Assembly (NCBI GenBank): GCA_964497535.1
Contig: CAZCCG010000001.1
Coordinates: 291,425-355,424, forward strand
Reading direction: 5' to 3'
DNA from: an uncultured Gammaproteobacteria bacterium
Lineage (GTDB): Bacteria > Patescibacteriota > Microgenomatia > Levybacterales > UBA12049
Length of the DNA: 64,000 bases
Each line of letters begins with the position of its first letter. Within the stretch, counting starts at the first letter, position 1. Shown here piece after piece: positions 8,029-10,928 of this stretch. The position numbers were made by a program, and so were the translations under genes. The notes below the pieces were generated by a model. The model ran no database searches, had not been told where the DNA came from, and saw only the letters and a program-made list of their open reading frames with translations.

Positions 8029-8418
8029 ATGCGCAAATATATCTTGTCCTTTTTGTGGGTAATTATAAGTCTCGTTTTTTTTAGCTTCATAGCTCCTCAT
8101 TCCGTATATGCACAATGTGCAAATCCTGAGGATGAAATCAATATTGGTATTACTACGCTTTGTTCTGGAGAGAGTGCTGATCCTGCTTCAGCAGTTTCCC
8201 AAATTTACGGATTTGGATTGTCAATTATTGGAGGAGTTGCGGTTCTTTTGATTATTTATGGAGGATATGTGATCTTGACTTCCTCTGGAAATCCTGCACA
8301 ATTGAATAAGGGAAAAAGCTATATTTTCTATGCTATTATCGGGTTACTGTTAGCAGTTTTTGGATATGTATTTCTCGATTTTATAGCCCGGGGTGTATTG
8401 CACATTCCTGGCTTTTGA
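8029..8418 (+). CDS. Small secreted two-TM protein with VirB2/TrbC-pilin-like topology (hypothetical)
   Basis: Signal peptide ending VYAQ, about 35 hydrophilic residues, a TM helix (LSIIGGVAVLLIIYGGYVILT), a short loop (SSGNPAQLNKGKS), and a second TM helix. The assignment rests on topology only. Confidence 0.45.
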   Translation: MRKYILSFLWVIISLVFFSFIAPHSVYAQCANPEDEINIGITTLCSGESADPASAVSQIYGFGLSIIGGVAVLLIIYGGYVILTSSGNPAQLNKGKSYIFYAIIGLLLAVFGYVFLDFIARGVLHIPGF

Positions 8419-8444
8419 TAATTTATTTATAATTATATTAAACT

Positions 8445-10928
8445 ATGAAACGCTTCCTGCCTGCGTTCTTATTATTATTTGTTCTACTCTTCATTGGATT
8501 TTCGTTTTCTGTTCCTCGTTCATATGCTCAAGCAGTAGCAACTATCACTCCTCCGGCACCCACTGACGCTGTGGATCCTTCACTAACTGCTAATACATGG
8601 AAAGAGGATGATGAAGTAACCTTTGTCGGTAAAGTTGCGGCTCGAGCTGATGCGTTCCTCAACTGGGCGCTGCAATATTATAAATGGGCATATGTTCCAA
8701 GTGGGGCACAGGATACGCTTCAGAGTTTTTGGGTCACTATTCGAAATATTGTATATTTATTTTTATTGCTGGTTATCCTCATTACGGCATTTGTTCTCAT
8801 GGTAACCCGGGGTAGAAGTATTACCATCATGAGATTTATTCCTCGATTTATTGCCGTTATATTGTTAATTTTCTTCTCCTACGCAATCGTTCAGTTTTTG
8901 TATGGTATGGGTGATCTTGTTCAGGATTGGTTTTTACGCAATTCTGATCATAAAATTATTCAGTCAAGCGATTTGTTATATTTAGGCTTCAAATATGATG
9001 AATTTACCGGATTTCGTAAAATTGGATTGGATAATGATGAATCCGCTTTCGTTTCTCTTCTGTTAGTTAAATTAACAGCGGCTACCTATTATGTGATGAC
9101 GGGAATCTTAATTCTTCGAAAAATAATATTGTGGTTTTTTATTATTTTATCTCCTGTTTTTCCTATTCTTTTGTTATATGCGCCGCTTCGAAATACCGGT
9201 AAGATTTGGGTGGGAGAATTTTTCCGGTGGTTATTGTATGCTCCTCTTTTTTCAATTTTTCTTTCAGGACTTGTTGCTATGTGGAGTTCGGGAAGTCAAA
9301 CGATTTCAGGAATCCCATTGGAGTTTAAGAACCTAGGACAAGCGGGGGTTGAAGCCAATATTCTTTATCCCACAGCTATTAACATTGTATTAGGTGGCCC
9401 GGGACAGATCGTGAACCAATACAATAGCGTTAATTTACCCGATACGTTTGCATTGTATGTTGTCGCATTATTGATGCTATGGGTAGTCATTCTTCTGCCA
9501 TTTTTACTTCTTCAGATTTTTCTTGATTATTTCCATAGTGTTTCCTTTAGTGACAATACCTACTTAAAACAACTTATTGCAAATGGCTCATCGTTTATTA
9601 ACAAAAATCCTGCACCGGCGCCCCAGGGGCCTCCCCCTGTTTCACCTCAGTCAACTGGTATGGCCAAAGTTTTGCCATTTGCTAATAAAATTTCTATTCC
9701 CAATGTCCGACCACAGGCTGAGACATTTCGTCCGGCAGGAGAGGCTCGGAGTTTGCCATTTGCTCGTCCGCAACAAAGACAATTACCGAAAGAAGAAGTA
9801 CGGCAGATATCACAACTTACCTCTCTTCCGGTACCCACAATGCAAGACATTGCCCGATATGAAACAGCTGCACTATCGAGCAATATAACGCGTCATGAAG
9901 AAGTTTCCAGAGTTCATGAGACATTGGAAAAGATTGCTAATCCTTCAGTTATCACCAACAATACCGAAAAGGAACGGTTCAACCTCGTGCGGGAAAAACT
10001 GGTTCAACAAAGTCAACAAGGCAATCCTCTTGCAGCTTCAATACTTTCGGCAGTAACCAATGTCGTTACTACCAATAAATCATCAGTTCAAACGGTGCCC
10101 CTTACTGCTACTCAAGTAACTCAAAATGTACAAAAAGGGCTTGAAAAGATTGCAAATCCTGTTGCCACAACAAACCCTGTTGAGCGCAAACAATTTACTC
10201 AGCTGAAAGAGCACTTGATTCAAGAAAGTGAGAAAGGAAACCAATTGGCAACATCAGTATTGGCAACCACAACTACTATTACAAATGAATCTCATAAAAC
10301 TGATACAACCGAAGTAGTAAGAGTGAGACAACAGTTGGAAACCGCCAAGCAAAAAGGTGATCCACTTGCAACTTCTATTCTTGAAACCTTTAATACACAA
10401 CAAAAACCGGCTCAACAAGCAGGAGCCCGTGGTGGTCCATCGGTAGTATTACCTTCTGTTAATCGTGTCCAGCATGTAAGCCTGGATGATTATGAGGCAG
10501 TACGAAAAATGTGGAAAGAAAATTATCAAAATATGGATGTGCCTCCAGCCGATGGAAATGATCGAAAAACGTGGTTACAAGGTGATATTACAAAAATGAA
10601 TCGAATTATAAATCTATTAGTCTCATCTAATCCGCAAAGTGCTGAAGAAGCAATGAGAGAAGTATCAAATATTTTGCCGTTCCTTCTCATTGGAGGCTTC
10701 TCCCAAGAAGAAATTATTGCTTATTTGAAGGCAAAAGAAGAAGCTGCAAAAGAAGTACTTTCAGATTTAGATAAGAAAGAGGAAGAGGAAGATACCATGG
10801 TTGCCGCAGATACAAAAACGAAAGAGGCAGAAAAATCAATGCAAGCACAAGAAAGTTTGCCGGAAAATCCTGTATTTAAAGAAGAAAAAAAAGAGGATAT
10901 ACCAAAGACTGAAGAAACAAGTCATTGA
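8445..10928 (+). CDS. Large polytopic membrane protein (signal peptide plus 5-6 TM helices) with a long repetitive C-terminal hydrophilic domain. The topology resembles VirB6/TrbL (hypothetical).
   Basis: Signal peptide (SYAQA), a periplasmic segment, then 5-6 hydrophobic helices across residues 100-360, then a roughly 450-aa soluble tail with about 2.5 tandem ~60-aa repeats (LEKIANP...GNPLA(A/T)S(I/V)L). Confidence 0.45.
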   Translation: MKRFLPAFLLLFVLLFIGFSFSVPRSYAQAVATITPPAPTDAVDPSLTANTWKEDDEVTFVGKVAARADAFLNWALQYYKWAYVPSGAQDTLQSFWVTIRNIVYLFLLLVILITAFVLMVTRGRSITIMRFIPRFIAVILLIFFSYAIVQFLYGMGDLVQDWFLRNSDHKIIQSSDLLYLGFKYDEFTGFRKIGLDNDESAFVSLLLVKLTAATYYVMTGILILRKIILWFFIILSPVFPILLLYAPLRNTGKIWVGEFFRWLLYAPLFSIFLSGLVAMWSSGSQTISGIPLEFKNLGQAGVEANILYPTAINIVLGGPGQIVNQYNSVNLPDTFALYVVALLMLWVVILLPFLLLQIFLDYFHSVSFSDNTYLKQLIANGSSFINKNPAPAPQGPPPVSPQSTGMAKVLPFANKISIPNVRPQAETFRPAGEARSLPFARPQQRQLPKEEVRQISQLTSLPVPTMQDIARYETAALSSNITRHEEVSRVHETLEKIANPSVITNNTEKERFNLVREKLVQQSQQGNPLAASILSAVTNVVTTNKSSVQTVPLTATQVTQNVQKGLEKIANPVATTNPVERKQFTQLKEHLIQESEKGNQLATSVLATTTTITNESHKTDTTEVVRVRQQLETAKQKGDPLATSILETFNTQQKPAQQAGARGGPSVVLPSVNRVQHVSLDDYEAVRKMWKENYQNMDVPPADGNDRKTWLQGDITKMNRIINLLVSSNPQSAEEAMREVSNILPFLLIGGFSQEEIIAYLKAKEEAAKEVLSDLDKKEEEEDTMVAADTKTKEAEKSMQAQESLPENPVFKEEKKEDIPKTEETSH
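9880..10400 (+). repeat. In-frame tandem repeat of about 180 nt (2.5 copies) inside the 8445-10928 CDS
   Basis: Protein repeats: VHETLEKIANPSVITNNTEKERFNLVREKLVQQSQQGNPLAASILSAV, then VQKGLEKIANPVATTNPVERKQFTQLKEHLIQESEKGNQLATSVLATT, then LETAKQKGDPLATSILETF. Confidence 0.5.

Follow-up and report, generated by a model that had tools for sequence, protein, structure and literature searches.

What are two genes that resemble the membrane core of a conjugation machine doing inside a heat-shock operon? The question arose from a 64,000-nucleotide (nt) stretch of DNA, hereafter the window, from a bacterium of the Levybacterales (Patescibacteriota; Microgenomatia), which covers positions 291,425 to 355,424 of the forward strand of contig CAZCCG010000001.1 (assembly GCA_964497535.1). 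The window is a chromosome segment of 39% GC and is rich in housekeeping genes (nusA, infB, pnp, the RNase J gene, ftsK, alaS, rpsL, rpsG and fusA). On its + strand, an open reading frame (ORF) of 129 amino acids (aa; 8029–8418) is followed by one of 827 aa (8445–10928), both starting with ATG. A first-pass annotation, made from the DNA letters, had placed this pair inside the heat-shock operon, likened it to VirB2 and VirB6 of type IV secretion systems (T4SSs) and offered two explanations: a remnant of such a system or a convergent two-protein membrane pore. We found that the placement is right, as hrcA, grpE, dnaK and dnaJ precede the pair and a ClpB-like gene follows it, all in the same orientation, and that neither explanation holds. 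The answer we favour, with moderate confidence, is that the pair is a second, functional VirB2/VirB6 module that is set apart from the VirB4 cluster of Levybacteria and is expressed with the chaperones.

Homology of the two proteins

By hydropathy, the 129 aa protein starts with a signal-like segment (residues 1–28, with the boundary VYA-Q), and its hydrophobic helices at about residues 58–85 and 97–120 are joined by the basic loop SSGNPAQLNKGKSY. This layout is kept in 66 orthologs and agrees with the signal peptide, two transmembrane (TM) helices and short loop of the first-pass annotation. We found that residues 58–115 align with positions 11–67 of the 71 in the Pfam T4SS_pilin profile (PF18895) at 33.1 bits, above the cut-off of 26.6. 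TrbC (PF04956), the family with which a comparison had been proposed, gave 18.1 bits (E = 0.003) and stayed under its cut-off of 27.9. The NCBIfam model of the Mbov_0395 pilin-like protein, which comes from a mycoplasma integrative and conjugative element, was likewise matched under its cut-off (E = 1e-4). The consensus of the family (66 sequences) has two conserved cysteines, a glycine-rich first helix and a C-terminal IPGF motif. On its profile match and layout, the small protein is a true VirB2-type pilin homolog, for which polymerisation is only predicted. The window holds a single copy of a gene of this pilin family. There is also a weak terminator-like hairpin at 8390–8408, at the extreme 3′ end of the pilin gene, that could attenuate read-through into the VirB6-like gene.

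The 827 aa protein opens with a signal-like segment (residues 1–28, SYA-Q), followed by a hydrophilic segment of about 65 aa. Then come about six hydrophobic helices within residues 92–366, and the remaining 450 aa or so form a hydrophilic tail. Hydropathy and a repeat hidden Markov model (HMM) here agree with the earlier description of a signal peptide, a periplasmic segment, 5–6 TM helices and a long repeat-bearing tail. When the N-terminal domains of 14 family members were compared with the TrbL/VirB6 profile (PF04610), 7 matched at E ≤ 1, and the best E value was 1.4e-7. Three full-length orthologs with 46–49% identity scored above the TrbL gathering cut-off of 25.9 bits (P0112 at 30.6, P0030 at 27.1 and P0050 at 26.7), and another ortholog, P0002, scored under it at 24.6. 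The alignments of the three cover positions 3–189 of the 215 in the profile, which correspond to TM1–TM5. The TrbL comparison that the first-pass annotation had suggested was therefore positive for these orthologs and negative for the protein of the window itself. It had also suggested structure prediction, in which an AlphaFold2 (AF2) model of residues 1–399 (pLDDT 68, pTM 0.64) had TrwI/VirB6 of plasmid R388 as its top four Foldseek matches. Taken together, the ortholog profiles and the predicted fold indicate that the large proteins are a family of VirB6/TrbL homologs. The annotation had written that the pair mimics VirB2 and VirB6, and had allowed for a lack of any detectable profile similarity to them. 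The resemblance is real, the PF18895 score and the TrbL scores of orthologs lie above the cut-offs, and what was called mimicry is better described as homology in profile and fold.

Conservation and constraint

A pattern scan with one genome per species found relatives of the pair in at least 141 species-level genomes, and 80 of these loci, which we inspected, are nearly all from Levybacteria. The close relatives of both proteins belong to Patescibacteria throughout and mostly to Levybacteria (class Microgenomatia). An exhaustive profile search returned 1,432 representative clusters at E ≤ 1e-3; with the limit at E ≤ 1e-30 the number was 255. Identity is roughly 55%, and about 80 positions do not vary. 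We estimated the ratio of nonsynonymous to synonymous substitution rates (dN/dS) from five close genome pairs with estimable dS and found values of 0.014–0.11 for the pilin, 0.015–0.079 for the membrane domain of the VirB6-like protein and 0.03–0.07 for its tail. The controls from the same genome pairs gave 0.02–0.07 for dnaK and 0.03–0.065 for clpB. The pair is under strong purifying selection, about as strong as that on dnaK.

Arrangement and probable co-expression of the pair

We described the neighbourhood of the pair in the sample of 80 species-level loci, with denominators that count the evaluable cases. The pilin gene is directly 5′ of the VirB6-like gene in 56/58 loci, and the gap between them is mostly 1–12 nt. 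The end of dnaK lies at most 3.5 kb upstream of the pair in 53/58 loci, and in 63/67 species a ClpB-like gene follows in the same orientation at a distance of at most 1.5 kb; it is still directly downstream in three loci that have no dnaK block next to the pair (L044, L054 and L082). The position of dnaJ is either before the pilin gene, as in the window, or after clpB and the protease gene, so that in many species the pair lies inside a dnaK...dnaJ block. The genes for the downstream protease and a second Clp-type ATPase are frequent, variable members of the block. Small membrane ORFs upstream (3337–3711; 1286–1843, minus strand) were tried as members and dropped, being unconserved in related loci.

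The hrcA promoter in the window reads TTGACA-17-TATGAT. A degenerate CIRCE-like operator at 3712–3738, TTGGCAGTC-N9-TTCTGCTAA, was located with a relaxed motif; a search for the canonical CIRCE with up to 3 mismatches allowed found none in the window. The motif TTAGCA-N15-TGCTAA precedes hrcA in 54 related loci and is present almost nowhere else. A consensus sigma-70 promoter stands before hrcA in 52/62 loci, and the background rate was 23 in 3,000 random sequence windows. Such a promoter is conserved before the pilin gene in 0/50 loci, before the VirB6-like gene in 0/70 and before clpB in 1/62. Because the sole conserved strong promoter is the CIRCE/HrcA-controlled promoter of hrcA, the pair is probably co-transcribed with the HrcA-controlled heat-shock operon.

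There are exceptions to this arrangement. In L079 the pair is directly followed by groES-groEL with its own CIRCE, and in L084 about 7 kb separate the pair from groES-groEL downstream of it. The L079 module (9226–14764), in which the adjacent pilin carries the NCBI label Daviesbacteria, thus sits upstream of CIRCE-groES-groEL and outside dnaK-clpB; it has two pilin genes in tandem and a third one upstream, and its VirB6-like gene is shorter and accompanied by a 141 aa fragment. Because the distant members of the VirB6-like family (E about 1e-78 to 1e-95) are outside a heat-shock context, we regard the heat-shock embedding as a Levybacteria-level trait.

A separate VirB4 cluster

Pfam scans matched no VirB4, VirD4, VirB11, VirB8 or relaxase among the submitted ORFs of the window (all of at least 110 aa except two large ones at 45215–52298, and a few smaller ones), in agreement with the earlier statement that no VirB4, VirD4 or relaxase gene is nearby. 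We also found no outer-membrane core genes in the window. The FtsK encoded at 32773–34911 has both alpha and gamma domains and is the housekeeping translocase.

Through a paralogous pilin we reached a canonical T4SS cluster that lies beside dnaN/dnaA in Levybacteria. Its order is M23 peptidase, a 574 aa polytopic protein, four PF18895 pilins, a PrgI/VirB3-like protein, a TrsD/TraC-like protein and VirB4. The virB4 gene is on the same contig as the pair at a distance of about 100 kb in JACOXU010000001.1 and about 125 kb in CAZKJM010000001.1; within 10 kb of the pair there is none in the 80 species, where each unexplained Walker-A ORF of at least 300 aa was checked. The first-pass annotation had considered that homologs of the pair might never occur together with type IV ATPases or Hsp100 genes, and we found VirB4 in the same genome and Hsp100 genes next door. 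The 574 aa polytopic protein matches the VirB6-like profile (hmmsearch E = 4e-8 and 2e-9; hhalign probability 92.7%) over the N-terminal helix and the TM1–TM2 region. Because of this match, the VirB4 cluster probably carries a VirB6-like subunit of its own, with the 574 aa protein as the candidate. Tail repeats like those of the 827 aa protein were not found in the VirB4 cluster.

A published survey of Patescibacteria (Quinonero-Coronel et al. 2025, PMC12102498) scores VirB4 as "No" in its Table S1 for 24 of the 44 Levybacteria metagenome-assembled genomes (MAGs) that we tallied, and 3 of 4 MAGs known to carry the pair have the same entry. The idea that the pair survives without VirB4 was withdrawn, since two of the "No" assemblies do hold VirB4 DNA. 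In GCA_001782725.1 (L097, 13073–14965) the VirB4 ORF is intact and has no gene call, and in GCA_001782735.1 (L096) a scaffold gap of 15 N (14034–14048) interrupts it. Annotation-based calls of absent VirB4 in MAGs can thus be false negatives.

A further feature of the VirB4 clusters in five loci (L095–L099) is the presence of genes for 109–132 aa proteins of the family PF05635 (23S_rRNA_IVP), which lie scattered among the genes of the pilin array and PrgI/TrsD. One of these genes has a faint bAvd match, and they resemble accessory proteins of diversity-generating retroelements.

The tail repeat and the ClpB-like ATPase

The tail of the VirB6-like protein is made up of a proline-rich linker with LPF motifs, helical repeats, a C-terminal helical domain and an acidic end. 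Its AF2 model is all-helical with a pTM of 0.39, and a Foldseek search of the PDB with this model returned generic helical-repeat noise only and no structural relative. In three species we found the repeat unit of the tail again at the C-terminus of the adjacent ClpB-like protein, which is extended by two to four copies of it (L008 is a second contig of the species of L007, and the two were counted as one species). When the tail was compared by blastp with the ClpB-like protein of the same species, E values went down to 9e-38. A repeat HMM, run on every ORF in about 1.8 Mb of related sequence, matched the VirB6-like family and the ClpB-like proteins of those three species only. Because the ClpB-like protein bears the same repeats and has no export signal, we infer that the tail is cytoplasmic, as is expected of a VirB6 C-terminus. 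The shared repeats hint at a common partner of the tail and the ClpB-like protein, or at a direct interaction between the two.

The ClpB-like protein of the window is not a canonical ClpB. It scored 910.7 bits against the NCBIfam ClpB model TIGR03346, where the cut-off is 1232.1, and its NCBIfam scores are under the cut-offs for ClpB, ClpA and TssH alike. The alignment with TIGR03346 falls into two stretches, and the listed stretch restarts at profile position 524, as would be expected if the M-domain were skipped. The M-domain is the coiled coil that couples ClpB to DnaK. There are about 60 residues between the AAA lid (397–473) and D2 (from 534), and because this spacing is too short, we judge the M-domain to be missing. 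We saw no IGF/IGL ClpP-binding loop in this protein by eye, and there are low-complexity P/Q-rich extensions at its N- and C-termini.

Proposed function of the module and rival readings

By analogy with R388, copies of the VirB6-like protein would assemble in the cytoplasmic membrane into an oligomeric platform, on which the pilin, a two-helix protein exported by Sec, would dock to give a surface filament or conduit. Fixed within the hrcA-grpE-dnaK-(dnaJ)-pilin-VirB6-like-clpB block, the pair would be made together with the chaperones, and VirB4 could act in trans as the motor, which we take as the conservative choice of energy source. Alternatively, the position in the heat-shock operon may simply give a conserved pilin high, chaperone-like expression.

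Several observations weigh against a second, functional module of this kind. Nothing ties the module physically to VirB4; the 393 kb contig of the window is absent among the 120 VirB4 matches listed, although this has no evidential weight either way. On the side of homology, the large protein of the window matches no Pfam family, TrbL included, the AF2 model of its N-terminal domain is of moderate confidence (pLDDT 68), and the N-domain profile found nothing useful among PDB sequences (E = 0.22, a poxvirus protein). Hydropathy alone does not settle whether the tail is inside or outside. Co-transcription rests on motif statistics, not RNA, and the window has promoter-like sites at 7992 and 10925; as these are unconserved, we dropped them as separate promoters. 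Lastly, next to four more distant members of the family we could recognise no pilin, VirB4 or chaperone genes, except that one of them has a ClpB-like gene that is convergent on the opposite strand.

The most serious alternative, which we nevertheless consider unlikely, is that one or both of the neighbouring Hsp100 ATPases, and not VirB4, are the partners of the pair. The tail would then recruit the ClpB-like hexamer, and perhaps the second Clp ATPase as well, and the recruited ATPase would drive pilin assembly or substrate export by unfolding or extracting proteins. In its full form, to which we give an equally low probability, this would be a VirB4-independent machine in which the tail repeats dock an ATPase that has no M-domain, so that an unfoldase under HrcA/CIRCE control powers pilin extraction or protein export. 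The ClpB-like gene is directly downstream in nearly all species, even where dnaK is elsewhere, and there is no conserved promoter between it and the VirB6-like gene. The tail repeat is found on the ClpB-like proteins of three species and in no other ORF of the related DNA, the ClpB-like protein is atypical in its score, its apparently missing M-domain and its lack of a visible IGF/IGL loop, and the VirB4 cluster appears to have a VirB6-like protein and pilins of its own. The pairs near groES-groEL in L079 and L084 point the same way, and ClpV, a ClpB relative that is dedicated to type VI secretion, is a precedent. However, the adjacency is limited to one order-level lineage and could go back to a single old insertion between dnaJ and clpB; 3 of the 4 distant family members are not beside clpB; the repeat is shared in 3/66 species, and local recombination between neighbours could account for this. 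Published calls of absent VirB4, which might have lent support, proved unreliable. To our knowledge, no type IV-like machine driven by an Hsp100 ATPase has been described.

We consider it very improbable that the pair is a decaying, functionless remnant of a lost conjugative or other type IV system. Such a remnant would fit the lack of type IV ATPase and relaxase matches in the 64 kb window and the failure of the window's large protein to reach the TrbL threshold; it is contradicted by intact ORFs, not pseudogenes, in at least 141 species genomes, by dN/dS values like those of dnaK and clpB, by the invariant residues and the conserved junction between the genes, and by the occurrence of VirB4 clusters in related genomes. 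It is also improbable, if less so, that the pair shares only its topology with VirB2 and VirB6 and belongs to an unrelated complex, such as a heat-shock factor for envelope stress or membrane quality control, or part of an AAA+/subtilase defence system. Chaperone and protease genes do surround the pair, the tail has no known relatives, and PADLOC gave generic AAA and subtilase matches for the neighbours, including IetA/IetS. However, these matches are at the level of domains, and PADLOC returned nothing for either protein of the pair. We reject the convergent pore of the first-pass annotation because the T4SS_pilin and TrbL profiles are matched above curated cut-offs and the only fold matched is that of VirB6. 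A stress-related role of true VirB2/VirB6 homologs is conceivable, and it would be a second, functional module with another output rather than a case of convergence.

Comparison with known secretion systems

The T4SSs of Patescibacteria are described as chromosomal, poor in relaxases, often dispersed and derived from MPF-FATA (Quinonero-Coronel et al. 2025, PMC12102498). According to the same report, Patescibacteria depend on contact with host cells, and a type IV-derived apparatus is among the few systems that have been shown, in cultivated relatives, to be essential to this way of life. The pair belongs to the same phylum and to the same PF18895 family of VirB2-like pilins, and Levybacteria have the typical pilin array, PrgI, TrsD and VirB4 next to dnaA/dnaN. 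In contrast to those systems, the pair is 100–125 kb from VirB4 and within a hrcA-dnaK-clpB block. In that survey VirB6 is called "scarce" in Microgenomatia, Table S3 lists none for the two Levybacteria genomes examined, and the VirB6-like protein of the pair, with its long helical-repeat tail, is not recognised. The locus thus supplies Levybacteria with a VirB6-type family, backed by ortholog sequence profiles and a predicted fold.

The pilin of the pair resembles TrwL/VirB2 of the solved R388 T4SS (PDB 7o3v, 8rt9, 8rtd) in having a signal peptide and a two-helix hairpin. In contrast, sequence identity is 12–14%, there are no VirB5, VirB3, VirB4 or VirB8 genes beside the pair, the VirB6-like family adds a C-terminal tail of 450–1,000 aa, and the host is reported to be without an outer membrane (PMC12102498). 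In the Rickettsiales rvh systems (for example PMC2653234 and PMC7648143), there are multiple VirB6 and VirB2 paralogs, genes away from virB4 and VirB6 proteins with very long hydrophilic C-terminal extensions, all of which recall the pair. However, the lineage and the extensions are unrelated, and rvh is not known to lie in a heat-shock operon or to have a domain in common with an Hsp100. If our reading is right, a membrane core of pilin and VirB6 can be duplicated, relocated from its ATPase and wired into a chaperone operon.

The third comparison is with ClpV/TssH of type VI secretion systems. The neighbour of the pair is a ClpB-family protein that scores 698 bits on the TssH model, but the TssH cut-off is 885 and there are no type VI secretion genes; a link between the ATPase and the pair would rest on synteny and shared repeats only. 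The conserved adjacency of an atypical ClpB and the shared repeat lead to a testable hypothesis, namely that a secretion-type membrane platform is physically linked to an Hsp100 motor.

Other genes of the block

Table 1. Coordinates of the operon genes, the parts of the focal pair and the repeat-bearing ClpB-like proteins of other loci.
Feature	Position	Strand	Basis
hrcA promoter and degenerate CIRCE-like operator, overlapping	3702–3738	+	motif search
hrcA	3772–4503	+	translation, Pfam labels on orthologous loci, tblastn synteny
grpE	4531–5034	+	translation, Pfam labels on orthologous loci, tblastn synteny
dnaK	5015–6931	+	translation, Pfam labels on orthologous loci, tblastn synteny
dnaJ	7064–7981	+	translation, Pfam labels on orthologous loci, tblastn synteny
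VirB2-type pilin homolog, 129 aa	8029–8418	+	PF18895 33.1 bits, topology, family consensus (66 sequences)
VirB6/TrbL-like membrane domain, residues 1–370: signal peptide, extracytoplasmic helix, polytopic helices (predicted)	8445–9554	+	
Hydrophilic tail of the 827 aa protein, residues 371–827	9555–10928	+	repeat HMM, AF2 model
Tail repeat units, residues 492–553 and 565–650	9918–10103 and 10137–10394	+	repeat HMM
Conserved C-terminal helical domain of the tail, residues ~670–775	10452–10769	+	
ClpB-like Hsp100 ATPase, 913 aa	10965–13706	+	Pfam, NCBIfam
S8 subtilase, secreted or anchored	13722–16448	+	translation, Pfam, NCBIfam, tblastn synteny
Second Clp-type ATPase, N-terminal hydrophobic helices	16677/16785–19199	+	translation, Pfam, NCBIfam
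ClpB-like proteins bearing the tail repeat (other loci)	L007 13827–18140; L055 12537–16040; L082 14307–18317		

The second Clp/Hsp100-type ATPase (Table 1), whose start is likely near 16785, has AAA_2 and ClpB_D2-small domains and a weak first AAA domain. It opens with two or three strongly hydrophobic helices and looks membrane-anchored, and in L006 and L007 an ortholog of about 800 aa comes after the block. The window encodes two S8 subtilases with fervidolysin-type propeptides, the one in the block and another at 57195–58757. The first of these contains an SdrD_B domain as well as Cys-rich repeats, and the type VII secretion mycosin is the NCBIfam model that it matches best, under the cut-off. 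In other species its place behind clpB is taken by M4-type or other proteases. Further along the window, a sortase gene adjoins the gene for a 780 aa protein with a weak Baseplate_J match (40026–43086, minus strand), and in L084 the VirB6-like gene is immediately preceded by alaS and the ortholog of the gene for this 780 aa protein.

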